Assembly: GCA_964555185.1 (NCBI GenBank)
Contig: CAZKRD010000001.1
Span: 124,265 to 188,264, forward strand
Length of the DNA: 64,000 nt
Direction: 5' to 3'
Source: an uncultured Candidatus Saccharibacteria bacterium
Lineage (GTDB): Bacteria; Patescibacteriota; JAQUNI01
The number at the start of each line of letters is the position of its first letter. Positions within the stretch are counted from its first letter, which is position 1. The position numbers and the translations under genes are program-made. The notes below the pieces were generated by a model. That model saw nothing but the letters and a program-made list of their open reading frames with translations. It had not been told where the DNA came from and made no database searches. Shown one piece after another: positions 314-61,653 of this stretch.

Positions 314-407
314 CCAGATCACTCCTTTTCATTGCTATCAACTAGATTTTGCCATTCTGGAAACTCTTTTTCACTCTACAAGATAAACATTCAAAAGTCA
401 AGTAATG

Positions 408-565
408 TCATTGCGAGGAGCGACCAGAGGGAGCGACGCGGCAATCTCCAAACAGCAAGAATGAACCATTTTACTGGACAGAGATTGTCGCCAATACCGG
501 GTGACCACCCAAAGGGTGGCTTCGGTCATCTCTCGTCAAGCTCGGGTTTCCCTCGCAATCACAGA
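408..565. repeat. Family-A inverted-repeat miniature element (GTCATTGCGAGG...GCAATCTC / GAGATTG...CCTCGCAATCAC)
   Basis: Left arm 'gtcattgcgaggagcgaccagagggagcgacgcggcaatctc' and inverted right arm 'gagattgtcgcc...ccctcgcaatcac'. The same family flanks the GIY-YIG gene at 61654..62090. Confidence 0.6.
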
Positions 566-584
566 AAATAAAAAGCCAAAATGC

Positions 585-662
585 CTTTATCTAATTTGTC
601 AAAAAAGAATATTTTCTACCGCTTCCGGAAATTCATTTCCGCTATTTTGAAGGTTCTTTAAA
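585..662 (+). pseudogene. Truncated duplicate of the 5' end of the giant surface-protein gene (26 codons, then stop)
   Basis: MPLSNLSKKNIFYRFRKFISAILKVL* versus MPLSDLSKKNILYRFRKFISVLLLVGVF... at 2094. Same upstream sequence. Confidence 0.6.
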
Positions 663-1827: not shown

Positions 1828-2172
1828 TCCTTTTCATTATTATCATTAGATTCAACAGATTCAACCTATCTATAAACTCATTTTCACTCTACAAGATAAA
1901 CATTCAAAAGTCAAGTAATGTCATTGCGAGGAGCGACCAGAGGGAGCGACGCGGCAATCTCCAAACAGCAAGAATGAACCATTTTACTGGACAGAGATTG
2001 TCGCCAATACCGGGTGACCACCCAAAGGGTGGCTTCGGTCATCTCTCGTCAAGCTCGGGTTTCCCTCGCAATCACAGAAAATAAAAAGCCAAAATGCCTT
2101 TATCTGATTTGTCAAAAAAGAATATTCTCTATCGCTTCCGGAAATTCATTTCCGTTCTTTTGTTAGTAGGTG
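1782..2172. repeat. Copy 2 of the tandem-duplicated cassette; contains the intact start of the giant gene
   Basis: See 270..662. Confidence 0.85.
1917..2074. repeat. Family-A IR miniature element (second copy)
   Basis: Identical to 408..565. Confidence 0.6.
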
Positions 2173-5100
2173 TTTTTGCTCTTTCTATTGGTTTTCATCC
2201 CTTGCAGGTTAGCGCAGATAGTGATGACGCAATAAATAAGCGCATTGAAGAGGGCGGGTCTATAGGGACTTCTAGTTTATTTCAAGATTTAGTTGTGGGT
2301 CCGATTAGTTCGTTCGGCTCTATGCTTCAGAATTTCAAATACGGCGATGTGATTAACCTTATTCTAAAAAACACCCTAAACAAGATTATTGATCGTTTCT
2401 ATGATAAGGTGATTAAAGAATTTGAGGATAAATATCGGGTTAAAGACACTCTAACCCAATGGTGGCTGCCTTATGTTAATGCTCGGTTTGATAAGTTTCA
2501 CGGCTGGGTAGGCGAGCAAGTGGGAGGCGGGATGGAAGGGCCTCTCTTAGAGGTGTTTTTAGCTTTAGAGAATACAGTCTATAAAGGGGTGGTGGATACG
2601 GGCCATTATTTAGAAAACAGGCTTTTTAAGACATTAGAGCTTCTTTTAAAAGGAACCGGCGCGATTGTCGCCAAGGAAGTCGGTATGCAGGTGGGTACTT
2701 CTAATTATTTTAATTATGGATTCAGGTCTTTGGGCACGGATGCTTTAACCATGTTTTGGAAGGGAGAGGCAAAGGTCTTAGAGATGACGCAAGAGGCAGA
2801 AAGAGACGCTTCTCTTGATTACCTTACTTCTGATGCTTTAACCAGAGGCGATCAGGTGATGAACCAGCCAGAGGGCGGATTAAATCTGGCTAAAGAGCGT
2901 GAGATCAGGAAAAATTCAAAATATAATTTTAAGGAAATAGAAGATCAGATGAGCGAATGGGCGTATGAAAACGCTGGCGTTGGCAACGATCCAGCGCGTA
3001 AATGCGCGTATGCTTTTGAGGACGGATCTGTTTATAGAGTTACTGTGGGTTCAGATAAGCTTGATGGCGGAGATTTTGGATACAGCCATGTTCCTAATGT
3101 TCAAGGACCGGGGCAATGGGACATATTTCCCTATTCAGAAAAATCAAACTGGAATGTTTTGCGAATTTGGTCTTTATTTGATGATGGTTTAGCTGATCTT
3201 GTTTATGATGAAAGCGGAAAATTCCAAAAGATATTTTATTATGGCAGTACTGGTGCCCCCCAAGAGGTTCAAAGTTATGCTATCTATAATAAAGCAGGTT
3301 TAATCAAAATCTGGTCTTGTCGTCTTAGCGGCCCAGCGCATATTAAATACAAAGATGCTGGCTTGATTGAGAATATTAATTATTACGCGGACCCTAAAGC
3401 TACCCCGCGTTCAATCACGACATTCTCTTTTTCTTCCCGTTCTGGCTCGGTAACGGGCTGGACTGGCCTGATCGAGCGTCCTGGCCAGGCAGTGAAAAAT
3501 TATTTACAGGAATTAATTAACAGTCGTTTTGAGCGGGCAAATGATGAGAGCTCTAGTTTAACCGGTTTGGGCAAGGTGATGTATGATTTGATGGACGGGT
3601 TCACGGACGCGATTCAATTTGAAACAATCATTGAAGAAAGAGAGGGCCACCCAATGTATGGCTGTCCGGTTGGTTTTGATACGAATATTGACGATCTCTG
3701 GCAGGAGATGCGGCCTTTTGGCGACAAAGAGAATCCTTCGAGTTTTGACTGTTTGATGCGGGCGGTTGGCCAGATTGGCTGGGACATCTTTCCGACTATT
3801 GCCAAATACATTGGCTGTTTAGCGGAAAAATTGCTTTGCTGGATTTTCAATATAGATTCCAAGAGCGCGGAATCGCAGACTGTTCAATATGATTATGAGA
3901 CAGAGGTTAAGGAAGAAGGAGAGTGGGGCGAGAACCGCGCTGTCGCTCTTGATGAAGCGGGAGAGCCAATCAAAAAGAGAAATACTGGCCGCTTTACGAC
4001 AGAGAGTTTTTTAAGGTTTGCTGCCCAATATTTGATTTATGTTAAGTTGATTAAGCCCCACATGCCGGATGTGAGCGGGCTCGCGGGTAGTTTTTGGGAG
4101 TGGGTTAAAAATCAAGATTGGTTCCCTGAGTGGGGTAAAAGTCTTGGTGATGCCTTAAGCACCATTCTTGAACTTGCTGATGATTTTCTTGAATCCTGGG
4201 CCTGGGGAAAGGTGATAGCCTTTGCTTTGAAATTGCTGGGATTTTGCGATGATCGGTGCGAGGACAGGGAAAGTACGCCTGTGCCCAAAAAGCCAAAGCT
4301 TAGTTGTGAAGAGATATGCCAGGAATATCCTGATTCGGTTGTTTATACGGGCAACCATTCTATTTGGCACGAAGATCCTAATAAATCCGGCACTTTTTTA
4401 CGAGACGCGATTGGCGCGGACGGAAAGGAACTGGGCCTCGAGGAAAACAAGAATGGCGCTTTAATGGCCGGGACAGATAACTATTTAGGTATTGAGATGT
4501 GTAATTGTACAGAGGATACAGCGGCTTTAGGCTGGAAGTTTTCTCTCCAGTCTGATCAGAAGGATTTTGAAAATAGTTTGGATCCTGAATACAGAGTAAC
4601 ATCTGACCCTAAAAATGAGGTCCTATTAGAAAATAGTACAATGATGGATGGGAGTACTTCTTCCTGCCAGCGGAACAATCACTGTTTGATTCCCCGTGTT
4701 GTTTCCGCGGATTCGAAAAAGGGCTGGCGAAAATTCAAAATTGAGGTGGGCGAAAAGGCAAGAACCCGCGAGGTTATTTTTTCTTTGGTTACGCATCAGA
4801 TGGCGAATTTACATGATGATCAGGGAATTTTTGAGAATATTTATTATCAAACCGTAAAAACAGACGATGAAGGAAGGGTTATTTTCAATACAAACACTAA
4901 ACTTCCTGAAATAGACTTCAAAAAGCTTGATGATCAAGAAATCAGCTTCACTCTTCCAGTTAGAACAGAGACCCTTTTCGATATTATGGCTCCGCTATAT
5001 GACAGCGATGATGAGAACAAAGGAGACCTGCCTCTTCAGAAAATTTACAGAACTGATTTAGATGAACCGCCAGTCCTTGTCTCTTATGGGCCTGATACTG

Positions 5101-8024
5101 ACTTTTACCGGCCAGGCGCGGATTATACCTGGCAGTTATATTTGCGTAATAAAATCCAAGGCGCGGCTTGGGGCAATTTACCATCGCCGCAGGCAGAGGT
5201 TGATTCTGCCTCTCAAAGGGTTTTGCAGTCTAGTCCGAGTCCGAGTCCGACTCCTACTCCTGATACCCTCCCCAGCTGTACACTTTCTGCTAATCCTTCA
5301 AGACCAGAACCTGATCATATTGTGAATTTTTCAGCTAGAGTGACGGATGAAAACAATCATATCACTGATTGGATATTTGATTATGACGATGGCGCGTGGA
5401 CAAGTGGCGAGGGCAGTCCCGGGGCCGAGGCATCCTTTAGCCATACTTACACTGTGCCGGGAGGCAGTTATACTCCTGCCTTAATACTCAATCTTGATAC
5501 TGGTCCGGGTACGGTTGGTTGTATTACAGCAGTTGATGTTATTGGCCATGGCGCCGAATACGATAGCTTATATGGCAAATTAGAAGCAGTGCCCTACGGT
5601 ACAGAGAGTCAGGAAATGATTGATCGCTGTGTTCAGGGGATTAGCGTGGAGGATGCTCCTTTTCCAGATGATTATCCTGACAGGATTATGTTTATGCATA
5701 TGGGCAGGTATCAGCCTTCCGGCGCCGCTAATGCTATGATGCATGAAATCAGAGCTTATCAAGAAGAATGGCTAGAGAATTATAGGTATGAACATCCGCC
5801 AACAATGGCGCAGTATATGTTTAAGGCTAATTTAAAACTCAACGCGTTAGGACCGAATGTTGCTTTCCCGGGTATGCGCGATGAAATTTTTGAGGAGCTT
5901 GACACCGAATTTGGATATGGACCCACAGAAAATGTAATGAAGACCCAAGAATGGAAAGACTCTGTATATCAAGCATGGGAAGAAACCCTTACGGTTTATA
6001 GGATAACAGCAGGCGGCAGTCTGACCCCGATTACCAGGGACGAATTTGACTATATTCTTTCGATGATGACTGGCGATGTGGCTATGGGAGTGGTAACGGG
6101 CATTGGCCTTTTTCGCCCCAACATTGGTCAGGCCCTAGGGGCGATTCAGCTGCTTGGAAGGGGCTTAAAGTGGGTAATAAATAAGGTTGGAGGGGATTCT
6201 ACGAGCAGGCTTAGTTCGGAAATAGGAAAGGCCGGCCCTAGACAGCAAGTTTTAGATTTTGATCACAGTCAAAACCTTAATATTAACACGCATCGGGGCA
6301 AGTTTAAGATTGAGCTTAAGAACGATGACGATGAATTCTGCAACGGTAAGGTTATTCCTTTTATGCTTTATTTGTATAAAAATAAAGAGAAACGCCCGAT
6401 CAGCGCTCTTCCCTATAACTGGCTAATCGGCGAGCCGGAAGAGCCGACCCCAACTCCGACCCCATCCCCATCCCCAACTCCATCCCCATCCCCAACTCCG
6501 ACCCCATCCCCAACCCCTCCAAGCAATCCACTTGAGTTTGTGAAGTGTGAGGTTTATAAGGACGAGTGCCATCCTGACCGTGCATTAGAAGGTATTTGCA
6601 CAAATAATAATGGCATGATTGAGCCGGCAGAGACAGTTACTCTCAAGGTATATCTTAAAAATAAAACTGGAGGGTTTATAGAAAGCGAGGTGACTTTTAC
6701 TTCTATGAATCTCCCTAGTGAAGTTTGCGTGGGCATTTCACCTGGTGATGGCTCTTGTCCTGGCTTTTTGAACCAAACTTATTATCTTGACGGCGGCGCG
6801 ATTTTTGGTCATCGCTATCCATTTGCTGTTTCGAAATATTATAGCAAATCCTACTTGACTTTTCGTTTGCTCGGTGATATTGAAGGCAGCGGCGGCCAGC
6901 GCGCGATTGATGAGCAATTTATTGTAAATTTATATAGATCAGACAATGTCTGTGTATGGGGCCCTGATCCATCGCCAACACCGACGCCAACACCGACGCC
7001 AACCCCTCCTTCAGGGTACCCTGATTTAGTCGTGAAGCCTGGCGAGGAGTTTGGGTATAGGATGAAAAATGACAAAGATGGCAGTGGCGGAGTAACTGTT
7101 GGCGACGAAGTTGAGGTGTGGTTTAGGGTTACAAATCAAGGAACAGAGGATATGGACTCAGGAGATAAATGGGATATAAAACTGTATTCGCGTTATGGCA
7201 GTGGTAATTTTGATCATTTTAGGACATATACGGACCAGAGTCCGCTTGATGCTCCTAGCGGGAGCAGCTGGGATACTGTAGTAGTTTATTACTTCCCTAT
7301 TTTCGAGATCAGAGAGTCAAAAGATGTTTGTTTTGCCTTAAAAATAGATTCTGGTGATGATGTTGACGAGGGTTCTAGTGGAGAGAGAAATAATGAACCT
7401 GGCTTTAGCTCGCCTTATTACTGCATTCCGGTAGGCAGTACTCCGACTCCGACTCCTCCGGAGGTGAAGAAGGATGCTAAGATGAAAGAGGTGAACCTTG
7501 ATTCCGTAAAGGAGTCATCTCAAGGGGGTTCCTACACCTTTGATGCCGACTATACAATTGTCAATAATAGCCAGCCTCCGGATACGGCGATCGGCGGCGG
7601 AAGTGATGACTTTTACCGCAAGCCTACTTTAATGAAAGTGGATATTGGTAGAAAAGCCAGTGATTATAGTAAGACTGGGTGCTTCAAAGAGCTTGAGAAG
7701 CTTACTAATTATTCGAATAATAATAGAATAACGCGTTTGGATGAAAACGGCGATACCCAGTTTGTAAACTTTAATGATCAAGTTTATGGGCCTTGGGAAA
7801 GTGCTAGTTACCAAGTGAAGGCCGAGGTGTGGCACAAGTATGATGGAGATGATGATACCAGTAATAATATTTTATGTTCTGATCCGTTGAATATTTATAT
7901 AGGACCGTTACCGGCAGCCAATCCAGACAGTGAGCAGTCTATTGCCGGCGTAGCTCAAGAATTAACTTTAAGACAAAGAATCAAGCGGGTGTGGGATTAT
8001 GTTATAGACAAAGTCAAAAGATAA
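2094..8024 (+). CDS. Giant secreted or surface protein (1976 aa) with Pro-Thr/Pro-Ser linkers and PKD-like/CARDB-like segments
   Basis: Uninterrupted 5.9 kb ORF with an N-terminal hydrophobic anchor (ISVLLLVGVFALSIGF). Low-complexity linkers PSPSPTPTP, PTPTPSPSPTPSPSPTPTPSPTP, PSPTPTPTPTP. A PKD-like stretch (VNFSARVTDENNHITDWIFDYDDGAWTSGEG...SFSHTYTVPGGSYTPALILN) and a CARDB-like stretch (PDLVVKPGE...GDEVEVWFRVTNQGTEDM). Confidence 0.8.
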   Translation: MPLSDLSKKNILYRFRKFISVLLLVGVFALSIGFHPLQVSADSDDAINKRIEEGGSIGTSSLFQDLVVGPISSFGSMLQNFKYGDVINLILKNTLNKIIDRFYDKVIKEFEDKYRVKDTLTQWWLPYVNARFDKFHGWVGEQVGGGMEGPLLEVFLALENTVYKGVVDTGHYLENRLFKTLELLLKGTGAIVAKEVGMQVGTSNYFNYGFRSLGTDALTMFWKGEAKVLEMTQEAERDASLDYLTSDALTRGDQVMNQPEGGLNLAKEREIRKNSKYNFKEIEDQMSEWAYENAGVGNDPARKCAYAFEDGSVYRVTVGSDKLDGGDFGYSHVPNVQGPGQWDIFPYSEKSNWNVLRIWSLFDDGLADLVYDESGKFQKIFYYGSTGAPQEVQSYAIYNKAGLIKIWSCRLSGPAHIKYKDAGLIENINYYADPKATPRSITTFSFSSRSGSVTGWTGLIERPGQAVKNYLQELINSRFERANDESSSLTGLGKVMYDLMDGFTDAIQFETIIEEREGHPMYGCPVGFDTNIDDLWQEMRPFGDKENPSSFDCLMRAVGQIGWDIFPTIAKYIGCLAEKLLCWIFNIDSKSAESQTVQYDYETEVKEEGEWGENRAVALDEAGEPIKKRNTGRFTTESFLRFAAQYLIYVKLIKPHMPDVSGLAGSFWEWVKNQDWFPEWGKSLGDALSTILELADDFLESWAWGKVIAFALKLLGFCDDRCEDRESTPVPKKPKLSCEEICQEYPDSVVYTGNHSIWHEDPNKSGTFLRDAIGADGKELGLEENKNGALMAGTDNYLGIEMCNCTEDTAALGWKFSLQSDQKDFENSLDPEYRVTSDPKNEVLLENSTMMDGSTSSCQRNNHCLIPRVVSADSKKGWRKFKIEVGEKARTREVIFSLVTHQMANLHDDQGIFENIYYQTVKTDDEGRVIFNTNTKLPEIDFKKLDDQEISFTLPVRTETLFDIMAPLYDSDDENKGDLPLQKIYRTDLDEPPVLVSYGPDTDFYRPGADYTWQLYLRNKIQGAAWGNLPSPQAEVDSASQRVLQSSPSPSPTPTPDTLPSCTLSANPSRPEPDHIVNFSARVTDENNHITDWIFDYDDGAWTSGEGSPGAEASFSHTYTVPGGSYTPALILNLDTGPGTVGCITAVDVIGHGAEYDSLYGKLEAVPYGTESQEMIDRCVQGISVEDAPFPDDYPDRIMFMHMGRYQPSGAANAMMHEIRAYQEEWLENYRYEHPPTMAQYMFKANLKLNALGPNVAFPGMRDEIFEELDTEFGYGPTENVMKTQEWKDSVYQAWEETLTVYRITAGGSLTPITRDEFDYILSMMTGDVAMGVVTGIGLFRPNIGQALGAIQLLGRGLKWVINKVGGDSTSRLSSEIGKAGPRQQVLDFDHSQNLNINTHRGKFKIELKNDDDEFCNGKVIPFMLYLYKNKEKRPISALPYNWLIGEPEEPTPTPTPSPSPTPSPSPTPTPSPTPPSNPLEFVKCEVYKDECHPDRALEGICTNNNGMIEPAETVTLKVYLKNKTGGFIESEVTFTSMNLPSEVCVGISPGDGSCPGFLNQTYYLDGGAIFGHRYPFAVSKYYSKSYLTFRLLGDIEGSGGQRAIDEQFIVNLYRSDNVCVWGPDPSPTPTPTPTPTPPSGYPDLVVKPGEEFGYRMKNDKDGSGGVTVGDEVEVWFRVTNQGTEDMDSGDKWDIKLYSRYGSGNFDHFRTYTDQSPLDAPSGSSWDTVVVYYFPIFEIRESKDVCFALKIDSGDDVDEGSSGERNNEPGFSSPYYCIPVGSTPTPTPPEVKKDAKMKEVNLDSVKESSQGGSYTFDADYTIVNNSQPPDTAIGGGSDDFYRKPTLMKVDIGRKASDYSKTGCFKELEKLTNYSNNNRITRLDENGDTQFVNFNDQVYGPWESASYQVKAEVWHKYDGDDDTSNNILCSDPLNIYIGPLPAANPDSEQSIAGVAQELTLRQRIKRVWDYVIDKVKR

Positions 8025-8258
8025 ATATCAAAGCAGATTTACTTTTTTTCTTTTGCGATTTGATTTTAATTGACTTTGTGGATAAATTAAGCAACTCTTC
8101 TTGGCAGGGGTTGTTTTTTTATGGTATAGTAAATATGAGATTGTGATCCATTTCGGAGTGAAAATAAACAAGAATTAAAAAAAGGAAAAGAAATACCCCT
8201 TTTGCTTTTGGATTAGAAAAGCAGGGAGGGAAATTTTGGGTATTCAAGATAATTCTGT

Positions 8259-8806
8259 ATGCAAGGAAAGTTATGTCGTCGTCGTTCCATTAGATTGCCA
8301 GCATATAATTATTCTCAAGCCGGATATTATTTTGTGACGATTTGCACCCAGAATTTTTGGTGTTGTTTGGGAGAAGTTATTGCTGGGGAGATGAAACTAT
8401 CCGAAGCAGGGCATATGATTGATCAGAAATGGCAGGGATTAAAGAATAAATTTAAAAACATCAGGTTAGATCGATATCAGATTATGCCAAATCATTTCCA
8501 TGGGATTATTGTCATTACCCGTACAAAAATCGTCCCAGACTAGGTGATATTATTGGTGCATTTAAATCGATAACAACCTATAGATATATCCAAAATGTCA
8601 AAAGTAAAAACTGGCCTCGGTTTCACAAGCGTTTCTGGCAGCGCAACTATTACGAACACATCATCAAAACCGAAGAGTCCCTAAACCAATTCCGTGAATA
8701 TATTAAGAAGAACCCAGTACATTGGGAGAGTGACAGGAATAATCCTGATAATGTTAAGGTGAAATATTCCGCAAAAATTAAAACACAATGCGTAAAAATA
8801 AGTTAA
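8259..8806 (+). pseudogene. REP-associated tyrosine transposase (RAYT / IS200-IS605 TnpA family), frameshifted
   Basis: Part 1 (8259..8543): RRRSIRLPAYNYSQAGYYFVTICT...QIMPNHFHGIIVI (HxH motif). Part 2 is in another frame to 8806: RLGDIIGAFKSITTYRYIQ...RFWQRNYYEHIIKTEESL..YIKKNPVHWESD (catalytic Tyr region). The frames switch at the A5 run 8525-8529; six A's would restore one ORF of about 185 aa. Confidence 0.7.
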
Positions 8807-11800
8807 AAATATTTGCTCTGCTCGCTTTTATCCTGATCGGCGTGTTTTGGGGTGTGGGAAGGGTCGCGAAGGTTCAGGCGGAGAATCTGGTGGAGTGCAA
8901 ACGGAAAGCCTCTGTAGCAGCAACAGCATCATATTGGACAAAGGGTGATGTAAAGTGTGATTTAGATCAGAATCAGATTTGTGCCTACTATTCGGAATGG
9001 GGTAGCTTGGGATGGTATCCTAAAGAGATATGTAAAAAATTAGTTGAGGCCCGACATTGCTTAGGAGAAGACCCTGACTGTAATACAGATTTTGAAGGCG
9101 CTTTATTTGGAGGCGATGTAGAGAATGTTAAAATGAGAGAAGGGATTGAAACTGTGCCAGCTTATTATATGAGTGATAAGGATTATAAAATTGGCTGTCA
9201 GCAAGGGTTTTCGCCTGCTTCAACTGGCGATCATGAGAGGGCAATAGGTGTTGGTTTGGGGAGGAGGTCTGCTGAAATCTATCAATGCTTAGAGGAAACC
9301 GACCCCGGGGTTTATCAGGATGCTTGCGGCGATGGCAGAGGCGTACATAAAGAAGGGGATCAAATCATACCCACGGCTTGTGTAAGCTCTGATAAGCAAT
9401 GCGTGCCTCAGACCAAAGACGGACAATATGTATTCTTCGCGATTGCTAATAGAACGCTAACGCGCGAACAGGAATGGGTTGATGTTGGTAATCCATCGAG
9501 AGTCGTTATAAAACCAGGAAGCAAGGCTTATTGTTATGATACTTATCAAGAGATAGATTCTGCTAATTGTTATTTAGAAGCAGATAAAGACTTAATAGAT
9601 AAAGATTCTCCTGGCAGAAAGATTACCCCTAGCATAAACGCTGTTTATGGCGCAATAGTTGGTCAGAACGTTAAAGAATATTTTAGGCCGCATTATGAAT
9701 GTGAAGAAGGGGGCAGTGCATTTTGGCAGATATTCAACAGCACAATCGGCGTAGCATTGACCACGATTTTTGGCCTTATTGCCTCGGTTATTATTTTTAT
9801 TCTTGGCGCTGTGTTTTGGCTCGTTACCGCTTTTTTGGAATGGGTAATGGGGATTAGTAAGATAGAGGTAGGGATTATTGATATTGTTTGGGAGTTTTTG
9901 CGTGATTTTTCCAATATGTTCTTTATTATCATCCTGCTCTATATTGCTTTCTGTACGGTTTTGCGCATCCAGAGCCAGAATATTAAAAAAGCCCTGCCCT
10001 GGTTTATGTTTTCTGTCATCCTGATCAATTTTTCTCAAGTGATTTGTCAGATAGTGCTTGATTTTTCCCAGATTTTGATTGACGGCATTTATTACTTAAT
10101 GCCCGGGAACTGGTGGGGGCGGGTAAATTTTGTTTTGCATGCCGGGGGCATGGATGAATGGATGAATGTCAGGACTGTTTTTGGCAGTAGAAAGTTAAAT
10201 GATTTTGTCGGCGTAATCGGGGCGCAGGGTTTGAGTATTCTTTATATGGTGGCGTCCGTGATTGTTTTTGGCGCGACTGCTTTTCTTTTGGCAATCCGGA
10301 TTGTGGTTTTGTGGATTATGACCGCGATTTCGCCGCTTATTTATGTCGCGATGGCTGTTGGCAACAAGGGCATTGTCAAAAAGTACTGGATCAGTTTCTT
10401 GCGCACAGCCTTTTTCGCGCCAGTAATGATTTTTTGTATTGTCATCTCCATTGTTATTTTAAGCTATGATTTGGATGATTATTTAAAGTCAGAAGTGGGT
10501 ACAGTAGAACAGGTTTTAAGTGAAGAAGCAACTCAAGGAAATATTGTCACCGAAGCCGGCTCATTCCAGAATTTTATCCAACTGATTTTCGCCCTTGCTT
10601 TTATGTGTACTGGGCTTGTTGTCGCGCGCAAAGGCAGTGTGATCGGCGCTGACGGGGTAGTTAAAGGGGCGATGAAGCTTGGCAAGATGACTGCGCCCTG
10701 GATCACGGGTGTTAAACCGGCTGGCCATGGCGTGAAAGCGCTGGCTGGCTATGGCTGGCGTCAGGCCTTGAAGAGCCGGGCCGGGAAATATTTGAAGGTT
10801 GTCAGTCCCACGGTTTGGAAAAGAGCAACCAAGGCGCGCCGCGAGCGCGTGATGGAAGAAACTTTTGTCCCGCGCGCTGCCGAACTACAGCCAAGGCTCG
10901 CCGGCTGGCATGCTTTTTGGCACGGCGGCGGTCCTGCCTATGAGATGGAGAAGAAGAGAGCGGATAGTGCTAAAAGGAAATTAGCCAAAGATGAAGGCGA
11001 TAGGTTGACTCAGACTGATGAGCCATCAGAGTCTTTTATTGGCGTAATGAAAGTAGCCTTAGATCAAGCTAAGGAGCGGGGTGATCTTGGTTCGATTCGT
11101 GCGCTAACCCCTCTTGTTGAAGGAGCGCTCCGCACGGCGGGAATAGCGCGCGGCGACTGGAATGATGTCTTAAAGAGTAAATTTCTTAAAGAATCGGGAT
11201 ATGGCATTCAAAGAGCGACAACCGGCGCTGATGTTAGGATGTTTAAACAGCTTTTCGGCGATGACCCAGAGGCAATTCAAGTTTTAAACAGTTTGGCCGA
11301 GTCTTCCAAATCCAAATACACCCACCTTGCTTACGCTACCTATTTTGATGAAGAACAAGGCAAGCTGATCTATGGTATTGATAGAAAGGCGACAAGGTCG
11401 GAGATGAAAAGTGAGTTAGAAAAGTTAAATAAAAGAAGATTGAAAGCAGGCGAACAGGAGATGGAATTTGATGATTTCTATGAAGAGATTATTGAAAACT
11501 TAGGACAGGTTGACTCAACTGTTCGAGAAAATAAGCGGCTTCAGCAATTAGGTATGGCCGATGAGGTAGCCAATATAATCAAATTCTATAATAATGACCG
11601 CTCTAAAACAATTCTGGGTGAATTGGCGAAGAAAAGCCCTAAGGATAAATGGACAGTTAATCCAGGCGCGTTTGCCGCGGAAATCGGTGGGGGCTACACA
11701 GACCCTGAGACTGGTGAGTGGCATAAATATTATGGCGAGACAGCTTCAACAGAAGCCTATGTTGAAAGTGCAACCATGGCCGACGCAACAAGAATCGACA

Positions 11801-12159
11801 GCTGGGCTCCTCCGCGCATGCGCAAGGCCATTCTTGGTAATGAAAAAATGGTGAATAAAGTTCTTGAAGGGATAGAAACAAAGAGAAGAAAGGAGAAAAA
11901 AGATGAACTTGAGCAAGCAAAGGCTGTAGGTAACAGAGAAGAAGTAGAGAGAATTGAAAATTATATTACGGAACAAAGAGTAGTTTGGAACGCATTGTAT
12001 AGGAAGCTTAAGATAAAAGAGAAAACTGTTGTTGATGGAACCAAAAAGCAAACTGTTGTTGATGGAACCGAGGACGAGACAACAAGAACAGAGGAAGACG
12101 AAGCAGATGCTGCTGAAGATGCAGCTGCAGCTGCTGAAGAGGAAACAGAAGGAACTTAA
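8788..12159 (+). CDS. VirB6/TrbL-like polytopic membrane protein with Cys-rich N-terminal ectodomain and a ~400-aa C-terminal module (1123 aa)
   Basis: Signal/TM (IFALLAFILIGVFWGV), a Cys-rich region, then 6-8 predicted TM helices at aa 300-620 (IGVALTTIFGLIASVIIFILGAVFWLV..., ILYMVASVIVFGATAFLLAIRIVVLWIMTAISPLIYVAMAV...). It lies immediately upstream of the VirB3-like/VirB4 genes. The C-terminal part (nt ~10944..12156) is paralogous to 13434..14618. Confidence 0.5.
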   Translation: MRKNKLKIFALLAFILIGVFWGVGRVAKVQAENLVECKRKASVAATASYWTKGDVKCDLDQNQICAYYSEWGSLGWYPKEICKKLVEARHCLGEDPDCNTDFEGALFGGDVENVKMREGIETVPAYYMSDKDYKIGCQQGFSPASTGDHERAIGVGLGRRSAEIYQCLEETDPGVYQDACGDGRGVHKEGDQIIPTACVSSDKQCVPQTKDGQYVFFAIANRTLTREQEWVDVGNPSRVVIKPGSKAYCYDTYQEIDSANCYLEADKDLIDKDSPGRKITPSINAVYGAIVGQNVKEYFRPHYECEEGGSAFWQIFNSTIGVALTTIFGLIASVIIFILGAVFWLVTAFLEWVMGISKIEVGIIDIVWEFLRDFSNMFFIIILLYIAFCTVLRIQSQNIKKALPWFMFSVILINFSQVICQIVLDFSQILIDGIYYLMPGNWWGRVNFVLHAGGMDEWMNVRTVFGSRKLNDFVGVIGAQGLSILYMVASVIVFGATAFLLAIRIVVLWIMTAISPLIYVAMAVGNKGIVKKYWISFLRTAFFAPVMIFCIVISIVILSYDLDDYLKSEVGTVEQVLSEEATQGNIVTEAGSFQNFIQLIFALAFMCTGLVVARKGSVIGADGVVKGAMKLGKMTAPWITGVKPAGHGVKALAGYGWRQALKSRAGKYLKVVSPTVWKRATKARRERVMEETFVPRAAELQPRLAGWHAFWHGGGPAYEMEKKRADSAKRKLAKDEGDRLTQTDEPSESFIGVMKVALDQAKERGDLGSIRALTPLVEGALRTAGIARGDWNDVLKSKFLKESGYGIQRATTGADVRMFKQLFGDDPEAIQVLNSLAESSKSKYTHLAYATYFDEEQGKLIYGIDRKATRSEMKSELEKLNKRRLKAGEQEMEFDDFYEEIIENLGQVDSTVRENKRLQQLGMADEVANIIKFYNNDRSKTILGELAKKSPKDKWTVNPGAFAAEIGGGYTDPETGEWHKYYGETASTEAYVESATMADATRIDSWAPPRMRKAILGNEKMVNKVLEGIETKRRKEKKDELEQAKAVGNREEVERIENYITEQRVVWNALYRKLKIKEKTVVDGTKKQTVVDGTEDETTRTEEDEADAAEDAAAAAEEETEGT

Positions 12160-15788: not shown

Positions 15789-16205
15789 ATGCAAGCAGTC
15801 GTACCCCAATTTATTGAAGTTGAAGACAGAATCATTGGCCCTTTAACCTTAAAACAGTTTCTTTATTTTTTAGCAGCCGGCGGCATAGAGCTTGTCTATT
15901 GGTTTTTCTTTGATTTTTCTTTATTTATTTTAATCAGTATTCCGACCGTAGCGATCGCCTTCGCCTTCGCCTTCTTTAAGATTAACGATCGGCCTTTTAT
16001 CTATTTTGTTTTAGCGGTCATTGGGTTTTATCTAAAACCAGTGGTCAGGGTTTGGCATCGCCGCGGCAGTAAATTAACGGCGCGGGATATTATTGCTGTT
16101 TCTTTCCTTGAAGAAACTGAAGGTGTGGGGCACAAGGATTTGCTTAAAGCGCATATGAAGCGGGGACGGCTAGCCCACATCGAGAAAGCGCTTGAAACAG
16201 CGTAG
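15789..16205 (+). CDS. Small two-TM membrane protein, VirB3/PrgI-like by position and topology
   Basis: 138 aa with a hydrophobic hairpin (FLYFLAAGGIELVYWFFF...ILISIPTVAIAFAFAFF...FVLAVIGFYL). It lies directly upstream of the VirB4 N-domain ORF, as virB3 does in T4SS loci. Confidence 0.4.
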   Translation: MQAVVPQFIEVEDRIIGPLTLKQFLYFLAAGGIELVYWFFFDFSLFILISIPTVAIAFAFAFFKINDRPFIYFVLAVIGFYLKPVVRVWHRRGSKLTARDIIAVSFLEETEGVGHKDLLKAHMKRGRLAHIEKALETA

Positions 16206-16334
16206 AGTTTAGTTTAAAATTCAAAATGCAAAGTTAAAAGTTGCAATTAGAAGTTTAAAGTTATGGAAAATAAGGAGTTGAAAGGACAGCTAGTTAGGTT
16301 CCTATATCTATCGCTACTTTAATAAATTTGATAA

Positions 16335-16395
16335 AGAAAAGAAAACTTTAAATTTTGGATTCAATTTTGAACTTTGAACTTTGAACTTTTAACTA
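16335..16395. repeat. Family-B 8-bp periodic repeat upstream of the VirB4 N-domain ORF
   Basis: 'ttcaattttgaactttgaactttgaacttttaact'. Confidence 0.65.
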
Positions 16396-16402
16396 TATAC
16401 CT

Positions 16403-17176: not shown

Positions 17177-19117
17177 ATGCCTAATCCAAAAAACAACAAA
17201 GCCAAAAAAGAGTCAAGGGGTAAGCCCATTTTAGAAATTGTTGGTCCTGGCGCGTCCTCCAGGCTGGGTTTAACCCAAGAAGAGAAGGTAAGAGTTCTTG
17301 AGGCGCAGAAAGATTATTTAGAAGGCATCGCCACAATCAGAGACTTAATCGCGCCAGCGGCGATGAAGATTGACTCCCGTTATGTGCAGATTGGAGACTA
17401 TTTTGCGCGCACTCTTTTTATCTTCACTTATCCGCGTTATCTGCATACCGATTGGTTCTCGCCCGTGATTAATATGGACGCGGTTTTTGATGTAGCGATG
17501 TTTGTTTATCCTCAAAGTTCAGCTTCAGTTTTAAAGCGCCTGACTAAAAGCGCGGCCCAAATTTCTTCCTCTATTTCAATGGAGCGGGAAAAAGGCAAGG
17601 TCAGAAGCCCGATGCTTGAGACCGCGCATAGGGATGTTGAGTCATTACGAGATGCCTTGCAGCAGGGTACAGAGCGATTATTTAAATTCGCTCTCTATAT
17701 AACCATTTATGGGACTTCCTTAAAACATCTCGACAAAAATACAAAAAGGGTGGAAGTCTTGCTGGGCACTCGCTTGATCTATGCTAAGCATGCTATTTTC
17801 CAAAGCGAGCAGGGATTTAACTCTACTCTGCCGCTTGCCAATGACGAGCTTTTTATTGTTAACAATTTGAATACTTCGCCTTTGTCCACCAGCTTCCCTT
17901 TTGTTTCTTATGAGCTTTCTTCTAATGAAGGAATTCTTTACGGTGTTAATCGCCATAATAACAGCTTGATTCTTTTTGACCGTTTTTCTTTGGAAAATGC
18001 TAATAGCGTGGTTTTTGGCAAATCAGGCGCGGGTAAGAGCTATGCGATTAAGCTTGAAATTTTGCGGAGCTTAATGTTGGGAACCGATGTTTTGGTGATT
18101 GATCCGGAGAATGAGTATAAGCACCTGGCCAGCGCGGTAGGGGGGGCCTTTTTGCAGATTTCTCTGTCCTCACCCCATCGGATTAATCCTTTTGATTTGA
18201 CCTTGGTCTCGCGCGCATCCAAGCCCGAGGACATTTTAAGAGAGGCAGTGATAAGTCTAAAGGGGCTTTTGAGATTAATTTTAAGCGGAGTTAGTCCAGA
18301 GGAAGACGCACTTTTAGATGAAGCGGTGATGCAGACCTATGCTTCCAAAGGGATTACCCCTGAAACTTCCTGGGAGGGCCGGGCAATGCCCACGATGGAT
18401 GACTTTGAACGGATCCTGCAGAGTATGGAAGGGACCGACAGTATGGTCCAGATTTTAAGCAAGTTTACCAAAGGAACCTTTGCCGGCATCTTTAATCAGC
18501 CGACTAATCTTACTATGGATAGGCAGTTCGTGGTTTTCAGTATTCGTGATTTGGAGGATGAGCTCCGGCCGATCGGGATGTATGTGGTTTTAAATTACAT
18601 TTGGAATATCGTTCGCGCGGAATTAAAGAGAAGGGTTTTGGTGGTGGACGAGGCCTGGTGGATGATGGAGCACGAGGACTCGGCCCAGTTCCTGTTTTCA
18701 ATCGCGAAAAGGGCGCGCAAGTATTATTTAGGATTGACTACGATCAGCCAGGATGTTAATGACTTCTTGGCTTCTCGCCACGGCCAGGCGATCGTGACCA
18801 ACTCTTCAATTCAGCTCCTTCTGCGCCAGTCTCCGGCCTCGATTGATCTAGTCGCTTCCGTTTTTCACCTCACCCAGGAGGAAAAGTATCTGCTTTTGGC
18901 TTCGGACGTGGGAGAGGGAATTTTCTTCGCCGGCAATAAGCACGTGGCGATCAAGATTGTCGCTTCTTATTCTGAAGACCAGATCATTACCTCTGATCCC
19001 AAGCAGCTGATTGAGATCGCGAAAGCGAAAGAGGAGTTTGCGAGAGTGAACAATCAAGAAAACGAGGCAGCGGAAGAGAGAGACGATTCAGAGCAAGGGG
19101 CAAGTAACACTATTTGA
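17177..19117 (+). CDS. virB4: VirB4/TraC/CagE-family T4SS ATPase (646 aa)
   Basis: LIAPAAMKIDSRYVQIGDYFARTLFIFTYPRY... then YGVNRHNNSLILFDRFSLENANSVVFGKSGAGKSYAIK (Walker A), VLVIDPENEYKHLASAVGG, and VLVVDEAWWMM (Walker B, DEAW). Confidence 0.85.
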   Translation: MPNPKNNKAKKESRGKPILEIVGPGASSRLGLTQEEKVRVLEAQKDYLEGIATIRDLIAPAAMKIDSRYVQIGDYFARTLFIFTYPRYLHTDWFSPVINMDAVFDVAMFVYPQSSASVLKRLTKSAAQISSSISMEREKGKVRSPMLETAHRDVESLRDALQQGTERLFKFALYITIYGTSLKHLDKNTKRVEVLLGTRLIYAKHAIFQSEQGFNSTLPLANDELFIVNNLNTSPLSTSFPFVSYELSSNEGILYGVNRHNNSLILFDRFSLENANSVVFGKSGAGKSYAIKLEILRSLMLGTDVLVIDPENEYKHLASAVGGAFLQISLSSPHRINPFDLTLVSRASKPEDILREAVISLKGLLRLILSGVSPEEDALLDEAVMQTYASKGITPETSWEGRAMPTMDDFERILQSMEGTDSMVQILSKFTKGTFAGIFNQPTNLTMDRQFVVFSIRDLEDELRPIGMYVVLNYIWNIVRAELKRRVLVVDEAWWMMEHEDSAQFLFSIAKRARKYYLGLTTISQDVNDFLASRHGQAIVTNSSIQLLLRQSPASIDLVASVFHLTQEEKYLLLASDVGEGIFFAGNKHVAIKIVASYSEDQIITSDPKQLIEIAKAKEEFARVNNQENEAAEERDDSEQGASNTI

Positions 19118-19788: not shown

Positions 19789-19794
19789 CTGATA

Positions 19795-19862
19795 ATTTAA
19801 AGTTCAAAGTTCAAAGTGACACTTCAAGTGTCATCCTGAAGGCGCTTTAGCGCCGAAGGATC
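19795..19862. terminator. Paired hairpins after the lipoprotein gene (family-B variant)
   Basis: 'aagttcaaagttcaaagtgacacttcaagtgtcat' + 'ggcgctttagcgcc'. Confidence 0.4.
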
Positions 19863-22084: not shown

Positions 22085-22215
22085 TTGTACTTCAACTTTT
22101 AACTTGTATTTTTGCCTGCCCGCCGAAGCCTTGGCGTAGACGGGCCTGCCCACAACGCTTCACTTGCGAGGCGGGTGGGAGATTTAACTTTTAACTTTGC
22201 ACTTTTAACTTTTAA
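22085..22215. repeat. Family-B repeat (GC hairpin plus AACTTTTAACTTT periodic tract) between the Cys-rich pilin-like gene and the PD40 gene
   Basis: 'acttcaacttttaacttg...gcctgcccgccgaagccttggcgtagacgggcctgccc...gcgaggcgggtgggagatttaacttttaactttgcacttttaacttttaacttttc'. Confidence 0.7.
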
Positions 22216-22224
22216 CTTTTCTCC

Positions 22225-25639: not shown

Positions 25640-25641
25640 CT

Positions 25642-25764
25642 GTCATTGCGAGGGAGCCCGCCCTTCAGGGCGAGGCGACCGAAGCAATCTCGTGAAACTA
25701 GATATTACTGCTTGACTTGACGAGATTGCTTCGTCATTCGCTTCACTCATTCCTCGCAATGACA
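25642..25764. repeat. Family-A IR miniature element without cargo
   Basis: 'gtcattgcgagggagcccgcccttcagggcgaggcgaccgaagcaatctc' ... inverted 'gagattgcttcgtcattcgcttcactcattcctcgcaatgacat'. Confidence 0.6.
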
Positions 25765-28907: not shown

Positions 28908-29012
28908 ATCAGTTTAAAGTTCAAAGTTTAAAGTTCAAGATTGAATTTAAAGTTAAAAGTTGCAGATTTTGAGTTATAACTTTGAATTTTGAACTTTGAA
29001 TTTTTAACTGTC
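28908..29012. repeat. Family-B promoter-proximal 8-bp periodic AT-rich tandem repeats (AAGTTCAAAGTT / AACTTTGAA)
   Basis: 'cagtttaaagttcaaagtttaaagttcaagattgaatttaaagttaaaagttgcag...aactttgaattttgaactttgaatttttaactg', directly upstream of recG (minus strand). Confidence 0.7.
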
Positions 29013-29017
29013 TAAAG

Positions 29018-31852: not shown

Positions 31853-32011
31853 CTATTAGCGAGGAGCGACCAGAGGGAGCGACAAAGCAATCTCATAAAC
31901 AGCAAAAATAAGCCATTTTTATTTCTTGGAGATTGCCTGCCTGCCGCCTGCCTGCCGGTAGGCAGGGTGGGCAGGCTTCGGTCGAGCAGTAGCCCTCTCT
32001 CGCAATGACAT
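31853..32011. repeat. Family-A IR miniature element without cargo (degenerate left end)
   Basis: 'tattagcgaggagcgaccagagggagcgacaaagcaatctc ... gagattgcctgcctgccgcctgcctgccggtaggcagggtgggcaggcttcggtcgagcagtagccctctctcgcaatgacat'. Confidence 0.55.
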
Positions 32012-32150
32012 TTTGCGAATTTTCGAATTCACGATATTGAGGCTTGCTTTTTTGAATCAGTTTAGTATAATACAGAGAAGTTCTTTTTGACAAAATATGT
32101 TTAGATTTTTAATTATCTTTGTAGTGGTTCTTCTACAAAAGGAGGTTGTG

Positions 32151-32474
32151 ATGCCAAAAGCATTAGCGCGATATCAACCTGGCTTAGAGGTTGAGATGAG
32201 TTGCTATCAATCTGGATGTGAAGATGTGTCGATTCCTGTGACTCTGGGCGGCGAATTCCCAGTTCATCCAGATTTTGTAGTCACATATAGCCTTGGAAGC
32301 ATGCATCGGGATGAGGGGACGGCAGCGAAGGGTTTCTCACTGAGTGAGCGTTTTGGCGGTTCGGGCTACTGCAAGTGCCCAGGATGTAATACTTTGTTTG
32401 GAGCAGTCGTGATCATTTCCAATGGGAGCGGCAAACCGGCTTCAATCTTTGGTTATAGTCCGGAGCCCGCATAA
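32151..32474 (+). CDS. Hypothetical small protein (107 aa)
   Basis: Strong RBS 'aaaggagg' 7 nt before ATG 32151: MPKALARYQPGLEVEMSCYQSGCEDV...CKCPGCNTLFG. No known motif. Confidence 0.4.
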   Translation: MPKALARYQPGLEVEMSCYQSGCEDVSIPVTLGGEFPVHPDFVVTYSLGSMHRDEGTAAKGFSLSERFGGSGYCKCPGCNTLFGAVVIISNGSGKPASIFGYSPEPA

Positions 32475-32690
32475 TGAACATTCCGCGAGATTGTTCACCA
32501 GTGGATTTATTGTAATATCACTGGTTTTTTTATTCGAGCAAAAAGCATTTTAAAAGTATAATAACTGACGAAGGCGGTGGGTGCAGGATTCCCACCCTAC
32601 AGGTGGTCATCCAGAAAGGGTGAGAATCTGTTGTGTGTTGCGGCGCCTTTTGGTTAAAATTCGAACCTATTTTCAGGAAAATTCCGATAC

Positions 32691-32731
32691 CGATTTTTAA
32701 TCTACCCGCCCGCCTTCGGCGGGCGGGTAGA
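32691..32731. terminator. Strong GC hairpin (13-bp perfect stem), terminator-like
   Basis: 'ctacccgcccgcc ttc ggcgggcgggtag' lies just downstream (minus-strand sense) of serS and inside the island's left end. Confidence 0.4.
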
Positions 32732-32881
32732 AAATCCGTTTCAAAAATTCGCTTCGCGGATTTCCGTCTCGGCAAAAAATTTTGTTAAGATAAAATTGTT
32801 TAAAAGCAATTTTGGAAATTTCAAAAATCTTTTGATATTTCTTTCCAAATTTCATTTTTCGTAAACAAAAATATCACCACT

Positions 32882-34177: not shown

Positions 34178-34243
34178 AAATTAATAATAACAAAAATAAT
34201 GAAATAAGAGTAGTCCCCTTAATTATTTGTCATTGTTGTATTT

Positions 34244-35248: not shown

Positions 35249-35264
35249 AAATAGTCTTAAGTGA

Positions 35265-36470: not shown

Positions 36471-36475
36471 AAAAT

Positions 36476-37351: not shown

Positions 37352-37384
37352 TTTTTGAAGTGGTGATATTTTTGTTTACGAAAA

Positions 37385-48405: not shown

Positions 48406-48490
48406 ATTTCCAATTTCCAATTTTTAATTTTCAATTTTCAATTTTCCCGCCTGCGCCAAGGCTTCGGCGGGCAGGCAATTTCCAAATAAT
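48406..48490. repeat. Family-B repeat: 8-bp periodic ATTTTCAA tandem repeats plus GC hairpin
   Basis: 'ttccaatttccaatttttaattttcaattttcaattttcccgcctgcgccaaggcttcggcgggcaggc'. Confidence 0.7.
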
Positions 48491-53156: not shown

Positions 53157-53165
53157 GTTTCCATT

Positions 53166-53193
53166 GTCATTGCGAGCGAAGCGAAGCAATCTC
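53166..53193. repeat. Family-A solo repeat arm
   Basis: 'gtcattgcgagcgaagcgaagcaatctc'. Confidence 0.6.
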
Positions 53194-54333: not shown

Positions 54334-54337
54334 CAGG

Positions 54338-54392
54338 GTCATTGCGAGGAGCCCGCACCTTTTAGAAAAGGTGCGGGGGACGCGGCAATCTC
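54338..54392. repeat. Family-A solo repeat arm with internal hairpin
   Basis: 'gtcattgcgaggagcccgcaccttttagaaaaggtgcgggggacgcggcaatctc'. Confidence 0.6.
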
Positions 54393-55175: not shown

Positions 55176-55184
55176 AAAACGTCT

Positions 55185-55220
55185 GTCATTGCGAGGGAGC
55201 GGAGCGACCGAAGCAATCTC
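55185..55220. repeat. Family-A solo repeat arm
   Basis: 'gtcattgcgagggagcggagcgaccgaagcaatctc'. Confidence 0.6.
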
Positions 55221-59469: not shown

Positions 59470-59548
59470 CTCGGTTAAAATTTCAACTTTTAACTTTAAA
59501 CTTTGCCTGCCTGCCGGAGCCTTGGCGTAGGTAGGAATTTTGAACTTG
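59470..59548. repeat. Family-B repeat (AACTTTTAACTTTAAACTTT plus GC hairpin)
   Basis: 'aaatttcaacttttaactttaaactttgcctgcctgccggagccttggcgtaggtagg'. Confidence 0.65.
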
Positions 59549-61639: not shown

Positions 61640-61653
61640 GTGTATTTTTTATT

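Follow-up and report, generated by a model that had tools for sequence, protein, structure and literature searches.

The question raised by positions 8259 to 8806 of the DNA analyzed here is whether a transposase gene that appears split between two reading frames is a working gene that has been misread, a gene whose product depends on a slip during its expression, or the remains of a gene that no longer works. The window, by which we mean the whole 64-kb stretch that was analyzed, is part of ENA ERZ23486238 scaffold_1 (706,972 bp). An earlier note, made from the sequence alone, had proposed that the locus is a RAYT (REP-associated Y1 transposase) inactivated by loss of a single base. RAYTs copy short hairpin repeats known as REPs. 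In agreement with that pseudogene reading, we found the frameshift in at least three assemblies and found that the second half of the gene lacks a start codon. We consider it quite probable that the locus is a genuine, non-functional and REP-less RAYT relic that lies in the leader of a T4SS-like operon in a Patescibacteria (CPR) genome of approximately 0.7 Mb. The coordinates of the locus and of its surroundings are given in Table 1.

Table 1 Features of the RAYT locus and its neighborhood, in window positions
Feature	Position	Strand	Evidence or remark
Conserved non-coding leader, RAYT insertion target	8025..8258	+	Alignment with relatives; free of REPs and repeats
Terminator-like hairpin in leader	8089-8116		
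Promoter-like site TTGGCA-18-TATAGT	8101-8130		
Stem-loop in leader	near 8196-8230		
RAYT N-terminal half, frame 0	8259..8543	+	beta1-beta3 and HUH; ORF listing, tblastn (residues 1-93), alignment, AF2
Interval holding the frameshift	8520..8539	+	Homolog matches of both frames; beta3-alphaC surface loop, A5 run included
RAYT C-terminal half, frame +2 (= -1)	8528..8743	+	Residues N91-N162; tblastn, profiles, alignment
Tail of the RAYT frame (PDNVKVKYSAKIKTQCVKIS*)	8744..8806	+	Host leader, not RAYT; three-way alignment, tblastn to L087 and L089
Downstream 1123-aa gene	8788..12159	+	First gene of T4SS-like cluster; no Pfam match
PrgI gene	15789-16205		T4SS-like cluster
VirB4-like gene	17177-19117		T4SS-like cluster

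The two halves of one gene lie in different reading frames

Frame 0 opens with the ATG at 8259 and closes with the TAG at 8541-8543, specifying a product of 94 aa that ends in ...MPNHFHGIIVITRTKIVPD* and carries the HUH motif N78-H79-F80-H81 (H79 is encoded by 8493-8495 and H81 by 8499-8501). The remainder of the protein is found in frame +2, which reads ...NRPRLGDIIGAFKS / NRPRLGDIIGAFKSITT...FWQRNYYEHII...EYIKKNPVHW... and reaches a TAA stop at 8804-8806; this half contains alphaC (LGDIIGAFKS), the W127-Q128 motif, E133-H134, K137 and the catalytic Y148 in YIKKNP. Thus the earlier assignment of the HUH and Tyr halves to frames 0 and +2 is upheld both by the reading of the ORFs and by the alignment with homologs. 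The statement that both frames are open across 8500-8540, with AAAAA as the only homopolymer there, was likewise correct: the two frames are both open over 8462-8540, and the A5 run (8525-8529) is the sole run of at least 4 nt between 8459 and 8591. Within the interval to which homology assigns the frame switch, the tightest placement is 8526-8531, 23 nt past the HxH motif and 25 nt ahead of GAFK. The frameshift is equivalent to the loss of 1 nt between the HUH and Tyr halves, and a single A inserted into this run restores a continuous protein with the family motifs kept, as had been claimed, although the length of that protein is 182 aa and not approximately 185. (A search for further RAYT copies, which had been recommended and which was run by tblastn on the 64-kb window, recovered both halves of this gene and no second copy, for a copy number of one.)

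A start codon is present in the N-terminal half only. Because the C-terminal frame has no ATG, GTG or TTG before 8759, and the ORF listing shows no ORF there, this half cannot be translated by itself. For the same reason we rejected the idea that an independently translated C-terminal fragment reassembles with the N-terminal half in trans as a split enzyme. Recoding of a stop codon was also rejected; the N-terminal ORF does end in TAG, yet the homology continues in another frame. The sole translatable product is the 94-aa fragment, which has the HUH motif and is devoid of alphaC, of the WQ/EH/R guide-recognition residues and of Tyr148.

The 3' end of the gene is altered as well. Its final 19-20 codons match the leader of two related loci, L087 and L089, both of which are RAYT-less (the comparison was made by tblastn with residues 164-182 against L087 and residues 165-182 against L089). 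The stretch 8744-8806 is therefore host leader and not RAYT sequence, and the RAYT has lost its native C-terminal tail and stop codon. The RAYT frame overlaps the next gene (ATG at 8788) by 19 nt. The earlier note had described an overlap with a VirB6-like gene; the overlap is there, but the name has no support from Pfam and is drawn from context, namely from the PrgI, TraC-like and VirB4-like genes located downstream.

The repaired protein resembles subclass 2.4 RAYTs

We compared the repaired protein, that is the protein with one A added to the A5 run, with profiles, homologs and structures. It scored 32.4 bits against Pfam Y1_Tnp (PF01797; cutoff 23), whereas either half alone fell below the cutoff. 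The best NCBIfam family was REP_Tyr_transpos (NF047646), at 58.7 bits; this is under the 80-bit equivalog cutoff of a model that appears to be centered on proteobacterial RAYTs. With the halves taken separately, the C-terminal half scored 39.1 bits against the same model and the N-terminal half gave a weak match, and the repaired protein scored 25.1 bits against transpos_IS200. These profile checks agree with the IS200-like/RAYT identity that had been proposed from the letters of the sequence.

Among 5.8 billion protein clusters there were 3622 homologs, the best of which (P0001) is 64% identical to the repaired protein. Among the matches listed, the homologous proteins are all single ORFs, of 165-250 aa. 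In the alignment the two halves match these proteins over their full length, and the window copy is unalignable only in the linker, where the frames switch. When the family profile was compared with the PDB there was a single sequence match, E. coli TnpA_REP (4ER8; E 5.5e-6), and alignment to Y115 of 4ER8 identifies the catalytic Tyr as Y148 in EYIKKNP (codon 8699-8701). (The catalytic residue is thus not one of the tyrosines of NYYEH.) An AF2 model of the repaired protein, with a mean pLDDT of 69, has strands at 68-75 and 79-86, a loop at 87-94 and a helix at 95-107, so that the frame switch is predicted to fall in the loop, between the HUH strand and the helix. The top 30 PDB matches of this model in Foldseek were all Y1 transposases, with 4ER8 giving the best rmsd (3.5 A).

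The profile score above the Pfam cutoff, the HUH motif and the catalytic Tyr are the hallmarks of the Y1 superfamily; the Y---NP motif (YIKKNP), together with a REP_Tyr_transpos score higher than the IS200 score, is that of class 2, the RAYTs. TnpA_Y1 subclass 2.4 (Quentin, Siguier, Chandler & Fichant 2018, PMC6006769), which corresponds to RAYT group 4 (Bertels, Gallie & Rainey 2017, PMC5581495), is defined by the motifs NH[IFV]H, WQ and YIxNNP and has a median length of 194 aa (PMC6006769). The window copy has NHFH, FWQ and YIKKNP and belongs to the length class of about 180-195 aa; its homologs have the hypervariable, REP-bearing beta3-alphaC linker of the subclass and are similarly scattered over many phyla. 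We conclude from these motifs that the locus is a RAYT-type Y1 transposase of TnpA_Y1 subclass 2.4 (Bertels group 4). The window copy has the short, REP-free form of the linker. It differs from the subclass in being frameshifted in that linker, in being REP-less inside, alongside and throughout the 64 kb, in having lost its native 3' end, in having Lys in place of the conserved Arg at the position equivalent to R104, and in its Patescibacteria host. (Of the papers listed in a literature search on that group, none mentions RAYTs.)

E. coli TnpA_REP (the RAYT YafM, PDB 4ER8, subclass 2.2) is the structural match with the best rmsd (3.5 A over 137 columns), and its HUH motif and catalytic Tyr align with those of the window protein, but it is about 18% identical to it. 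In contrast to the disrupted window copy, which is without REPs, the E. coli gene is intact and flanked by REPs or BIMEs (a REPtron), though it never has REPs inside. The TnpA proteins of IS200/IS605 elements (IS608, ISDra2) likewise share the Y1 HUH fold (Foldseek E ~1e-5) and the Pfam Y1_Tnp domain. The window protein differs from these in having Y---NP rather than Y---Q and in scoring 25 bits with the IS200 model against 59 bits with the RAYT model, and the window locus differs in that it lacks subterminal hairpins and tnpB, is present once in the 64 kb and has unique flanks. An identity as an IS200/IS605 insertion sequence was rejected on these grounds (Y---NP, no flanking hairpins, a single copy and no tnpB-like neighbor).

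We also asked how far the protein has been eroded apart from the frameshift. Of 59 alignment columns with a conservation of 90% or more among 120 homologs, five differ in the window protein (D17N, R33F, N48S, G113N and R137K), compared with a homolog mean of 2.15. This mild excess is in keeping with inactivity, although 16% of the homologs reach five such deviations. The HUH histidines, the WQ/EH motif and the catalytic Y148 are all preserved. K137 occupies a position that is Arg in at least 90% of homologs and that is equivalent to R104 of E. coli TnpA_REP, a residue that contacts GTAG and is reported to be conserved in subclass 2.4 (PMC6006769). Such slight erosion indicates that the inactivation is recent; low-level expression through frameshifting is a remote alternative.

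Neither a sequencing error nor programmed slippage accounts well for the split frame

Homopolymers are classic error sites on some sequencing platforms, and the earlier note had allowed for a sequencing error. With an artefact of sequencing or assembly, the true genome would have six A's and an intact gene. A run of five A's is, however, short for homopolymer errors. Moreover, the Logan assemblies of SRR8482191 and SRR8482194 and the ENA scaffold are 100% identical over the site, each with five A's (the SRR8482194 Logan contig has also been seen in one further sample), so the same A5 run is present in at least three independent assemblies. The intact allele was sought in a 15-billion-protein collection (5.8 billion clusters), where nothing exceeds 64% identity to the repaired protein, so that no intact allele has been sampled, while the truncated 94-aa product is recorded as a called gene in the database. 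These observations run counter to the suggestion of a sequencing error, which we regard as extremely improbable.

The transposases of some IS families, such as IS1/IS3-type elements, are regulated by frameshifting. A programmed -1 frameshift, or transcriptional slippage, on CGU ACA AAA AUC could in principle produce a low level of full-length and active RAYT. The good preservation of both halves would fit such an arrangement, and a tRNA-Lys would be able to re-pair one base back on A_AAA. However, there are only five A's, an in-frame X_XXY_YYZ heptamer is absent and a slip of a single tRNA on A_AAA is all that is conceivable. The RNA downstream forms no stable stimulatory structure (folding z-score of -0.92, with 39 of 200 shuffled sequences folding as well), and the frame-0 stop is four codons past the AAA codon rather than adjacent to it. 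If the split were a regulatory device we would expect to see it in relatives, but frameshifts were found at none of 80 homolog genome loci, and the homologous proteins among the matches listed are single ORFs. The lack of a cognate REP substrate in the 64-kb window and the loss of the native 3' end also speak against an active product. Hence the features of a programmed -1 site, which are a heptamer, a stimulator and a conserved split, were not seen here, and the slippage-dependent expression that had been put forward as a further option did not stand; we judge it very unlikely, if slightly less so than an artefact.

The frameshift coincides with the site of in-gene REPs in homologs

In subclass 2.4 the beta3-alphaC insertion varies in length and sequence on account of REPs that lie in frame inside the gene; the REPs themselves start 5' with a GT[AG]G foot, have a stem whose lowest three pairs are G-C, and often occur as "double-foot" units, GT[AG]G...C[TC]AC (PMC6006769). 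A canonical REP of the subclass is GTAGGGGCGACCCTTGTGGTCGCCC, with the GT[AG]G foot and a GGG-bottomed hairpin (GTAGGGG...). Consistent with that description, the linker DNA of the homologs that we inspected holds GTAGGGGCAGGCCTTGTGCCTGCCC, GTAGGGGTGCCCCTTGTGGGTACCC, GGGCAACCACAAGGGATTGCCCCTAC and GGGCGACCACAAGGGTCGCCCCTAC, and the linker REPs are read in frame as VGAGLVPA, VGVPLVGT, GQPQGIAPT and GDHKGRPY.

A motif and hairpin scan found REPs inside the gene at 65 of 80 homolog loci, usually as a doublet, plus then minus, whose two units lie some 250 and 300 nt from the start of the match. REPs were also present within 500 nt upstream at 41 and within 500 nt downstream at 38 of the 80, a doublet 10-60 nt downstream of the RAYT gene being common; in total, 78 of the 80 loci have REPs in or near the gene and two have none. 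(These loci come from Chloroflexota, Nitrospirota, Acidobacteriota, Proteobacteria, Bacteroidota, Cyanobacteria, Planctomycetota, Saccharibacteria and others.) The GTAG..CTAC span was divisible by 3 in 18 of 20 measurable cases, the first GTAG lying 12-45 nt past HxH and the last CTAC 15-39 nt ahead of GAFK, with one outlier at 82 nt. Note that inverted repeats flanking 67 homolog genes (longest exact match, 300-nt flanks) were in no excess over a cross-locus null. The conclusion that the family is not REP-flanked was nevertheless rejected, since such a test of flank matches is blind to differing REP sub-families and to in-gene REPs, and the hairpin scan gave the 78 of 80 loci noted above.

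The frameshift of the window copy coincides with this beta3-alphaC position of in-frame REPs. It is possible, as the earlier note had proposed, that one A was lost from a run of six. Because the site of the frameshift is also the point at which the family takes up in-gene REPs, deletion of REP sequence is an equally good origin for the lesion, and an A6 slip and the loss of a REP linker (3n+1 nt) fit equally well. According to the latter explanation the frameshift would be the scar of a 3n+1-nt deletion that removed an in-gene REP or doublet from the linker, by recombination, by replication slippage across the hairpin or by imprecise RAYT-mediated excision, and so broke the frame at the A-rich junction. 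This concerns the origin of the lesion and is compatible with the reading of the locus as a RAYT relic. Several observations favor a scar of this kind. In addition to the canonical REPs found at exactly this linker site in most homologs, the REP doublet of the closest homolog, P0001 (locus L085), lies between ...SNF and NKCP..., which align with ...RTK / NRPR... of the window copy, and in comparison with P0002-type homologs (TENVDAQNIVVQNRKPRLGD) the window copy (TRTK|NRPRLGD) is without precisely the REP-derived stretch. The distance of the switch from HxH falls inside the range over which in-gene REPs start, and the sister locus L087 still has a REP doublet. On the other hand, some intact homologs (P0047, P0104, L031 and L078) have a linker that is just as short and free of REPs, so the short linker of the window copy may be old; a REP remnant is unrecognizable in that linker, and a plain loss of 1 nt from an A6 run is one simpler step. 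With these points taken together, we hold a REP-deletion scar to be a tentative explanation, somewhat short of an even chance. (REP1-arm remnants around the A-run were entertained and rejected; the likeness was one seen by eye, and local alignments were no better than those of shuffled sequences.)

A stricter form of the same explanation is self-inactivation, in which the in-gene doublet would have been excised by the RAYT itself, or lost by hairpin slippage, leaving a 3n+1-nt footprint. We think this improbable. Were it true, in-gene REPs would amount to a built-in self-destruct or off switch, and the window locus and L087 would represent both end states of RAYT-REPIN extinction in a reduced CPR genome.

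Cognate REPs are absent from the window, and its hairpin families are of another kind

A functional RAYT would be expected to have HUH and Tyr in one intact frame, which the frameshift and the start-less second half preclude here, and to have cognate REPs that flank it and are dispersed. We found no REP in the gene, in its linker or in its flanks. The upstream flank (8025-8258) has neither a REP nor a repeat found elsewhere in the window, and downstream there is zero intergenic space. Across the 64-kb window there were no CCACAAGGG-type cores, four GT[AG]G-foot hairpins as compared with about three in shuffled sequences, and one relaxed REP match (up to 8 mismatches, Hamming scan) as compared with 1.07 expected. 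These scans for REPs and RAYTs cover 64 kb of the 707-kb scaffold, elsewhere on which REPs or a second, intact RAYT may be located.

The earlier note had pointed to two abundant hairpin repeats of the window, families A and B, as candidate substrates, and a RAYT that was intact or expressed through slippage might be imagined to mobilize them. Both families are palindromic, occur more often than expected and lie mostly between genes. A family-A unit consists of TGTCATTGCGAGG, a variable GC hairpin and CGAAGCAATCTC (also given as TGTCATTGCGAGG…GCAATCTC); its two motifs have 12 and 9 matches in the window, compared with 1-2 expected, and its units form long inverted pairs. Family B (CCTGCCCGCCGAAGCCTTGGCG[C/T]AGGCGGG) is found at the 3' ends of three genes. 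However, when the hairpins were checked for REP structure, as had been advised, neither family had the GT[AG]G foot at the hairpin base or the GGG-bottomed stem that is seen in subclass REPs across phyla. Nor does either family flank the window RAYT, and across 82 homolog loci matches to their motifs were at chance level, with the exception of a single family-A unit at L038. A more plausible partner is the nuclease gene enclosed by one family-A inverted pair (61653-62090), the ORF of which scored 53 bits for a GIY-YIG nuclease domain. The role proposed for these families thus finds no backing in their structure or in their distribution, and we give it hardly any credence.

A related locus has a degenerate REP doublet in place of the RAYT

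Two syntenic relatives of the locus, L087 and L089, were the only ones found in the 5.8-billion-cluster database. The next matches of the protein encoded downstream, at 35-37%, are from Patescibacteria and Ca. Doudnabacteria MAGs, which places the host in the CPR. L087 is on a 117.8-kb JGI contig and encodes a VirB4-like protein at least 90% identical to that of the window neighborhood. Its gene order is a giant surface protein, 382 nt, a 1116-aa homolog of the downstream gene, PrgI, TraC-like and VirB4-like, and its matched segments are 77-94% identical to the window in DNA. In place of the RAYT body (window 8263-~8743), and directly after a common "GTATGC", L087 has about 100 nt that read GTAA-GGGCAACC-CTTGT-GGTCGCCC, a 28-nt spacer and GGGCAAGCCATAAAGATTGCCC-CTAT, followed by about 20 nt that are unmatched. 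This insert is a degenerate canonical REP doublet, in which REP1 differs from GTAGGGGCGACCCTTGTGGTCGCCC at 2 positions and REP2 differs from the GQPQGIAPT type at 7. L089 has the same conserved leader with neither RAYT nor REP, that is, an empty site, and its downstream protein is 68% identical. (A RAYT remnant in the L087 insert, "GGGGCATTT" compared with GGTGCATTT of GAFK together with a decayed KKNPVHWESD, was considered and rejected, as the alignments gave p values of 0.2-0.7; the family HMM found no RAYT coding remnant in the L087 intergenic region.)

Drawn from these three taxa, the most economical history would be a single ancestral insertion of a RAYT with a REP doublet, followed by a deletion in each lineage. 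We infer that a RAYT with at least one REP doublet entered the operon leader in the common ancestor of the window lineage and L087. Decay would then have been complementary, the window lineage keeping the RAYT body and losing the REPs and the reading frame, and L087 keeping a degenerate REP doublet and losing the RAYT body. One deletion per lineage could have sufficed, from codon 2 to the doublet in L087 and from codon ~162 through the doublet in the window lineage, with the frameshift in the linker as a separate or related event. L089, which is more distant, would show the empty site. That L087 formerly possessed a RAYT is suggested by the "GTATGC" junction and by the common site. This history is tempered by the small number of relatives, two, and by the near-equal distances among the three lineages on the "VirB6-like" protein (73, 68 and 70% identity). 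The relic itself is probably still transcribed within the 5' UTR of the operon and enzymatically inert.

In E. coli, REPIN populations are significantly smaller in genomes that have no RAYT, and the co-decay of RAYT and REPs that we propose agrees with the published idea that a REPIN population is dependent on its RAYT. The relic would be a small natural example of such co-decay, following the entry of a RAYT into a conserved operon leader of a Patescibacteria genome of ultra-small size; what the two related lineages have kept is complementary. It opens no new mechanism or class of element. For annotation, the two ORF fragments are best treated as one pseudogene of a subclass 2.4 TnpA_REP, and the abundant hairpin repeats of the genome should not be attributed to the RAYT.

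An Rfam search of the window at gathering thresholds returned three tRNAs and nothing else.

A REP doublet occupies the RAYT site in a relative

In L087, one of the two syntenic relatives of the RAYT locus, a degenerate canonical REP doublet (L087 1620-1697; GTAA-hairpin ... hairpin-CTAT) occupies the exact place of the RAYT body of the window, and within the 22 kb of L087 that were read no further canonical REPs were found. P0001, the closest intact RAYT homolog, is encoded in locus L085 between a 232-aa ORF upstream and a large ORF downstream, which by eye appear to encode a TatD-like hydrolase and a leucyl-tRNA synthetase, respectively. At its start and stop codons the gene overlaps the two neighboring ORFs (TAATG, ATGA), which leaves no intergenic room for flanking REPs; the doublet inside the gene provides the sole REPs of P0001.

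Within the RAYT of the window, Logan contigs from several runs end (L001, L002) or begin (L004) at 8660-8665, in the WQRNYYEH-coding segment, and overlap by only 6 nt. Such a break implies that the assembly graph branches at this point, perhaps through k-mers common to other RAYT copies in the community.

A conserved leader precedes the T4SS-like operon

By eye, in a three-way alignment of the window, L087 and L089 (the relative without RAYT or REP), the non-coding leader 5' of the T4SS-like operon is near-identical in the three lineages, with flanking proteins only 45-73% identical. A hairpin resembling a terminator, a promoter-like sequence (TTGGCA-18-TATAGT) and a stem-loop (CCCCTTTTGCTTTT/AAAAGCAGGGAGGG) lie within it; in the stem-loop, L089 changes U.G to C-G and U.G to U-A. 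The leader, which has no match in Rfam, may be a cis-regulatory 5' UTR.

The gene directly upstream (2094-8024) encodes a secreted protein of 1976 aa that has Pro/Thr/Ser linkers and weakly matches a PKD domain. In the two relatives its C-terminal part shows only 45-59% identity, so the protein diverges faster than the downstream genes.

Features of the window and related loci
Feature	Location
Leader	window 8070-8250; L087 1430-1615; L089 2270-2440
P0001 gene	L085 699-1277
Family-A repeats	window 406-563, 1919-2076, 25641-25764, 31859-32010, 53165-53193, 54337-54392, 55184-55220, 61653-62090
Family-B imperfect hairpins, CCTGCCCGCCGAAGCCTTGGCG(C/T)AGGCGGG	window 22112-22144, 48446-48478, 59503-59535
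AACTTT/AAAGTT-rich repeats	window 16211-16399, 19792-19817, 22186-22219, 28911-29014
Direct repeat, 300 nt	window 344-643, 1857-2156
Inverted repeat, 83 nt	window 32823-32905, 37335-37417
Inverted repeat, 351 nt	window 56563-56913, 57417-57767

Other repeats in the window

Family-A units, which the earlier note had named as candidate RAYT substrates, run from TGTCATTGCGAGG through a variable GC-rich hairpin to CGAAGCAATCTC and are frequently arranged as long inverted pairs. Because one such pair, with arms at 61653-61707 and 62043-62090, brackets an ORF for a GIY-YIG nuclease (61640-62026; Pfam 53 bits), a role as RAYT substrate is disfavored, and we suggest that family A is a GIY-YIG-associated mobile or palindromic element. 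Each copy of the 300-nt direct repeat (96% identical; spacing 1513 nt) also holds one family-A inverted pair, and between the two copies lies an ORF of 358 aa on the minus strand (751-1827).

Family-B hairpins, with AACTTT/AAAGTT-rich repeats ahead of them, lie directly beyond the 3' ends of three genes and may be terminators or a further repeat family.

A low-GC island (32000-38000; 29-36% vs ~43%), bordered by the 83-nt inverted repeat (98% complementary), may have been acquired recently or be invertible. The 351-nt inverted repeat (91% complementary; 503 nt between arms) overlaps ORFs of both strands.
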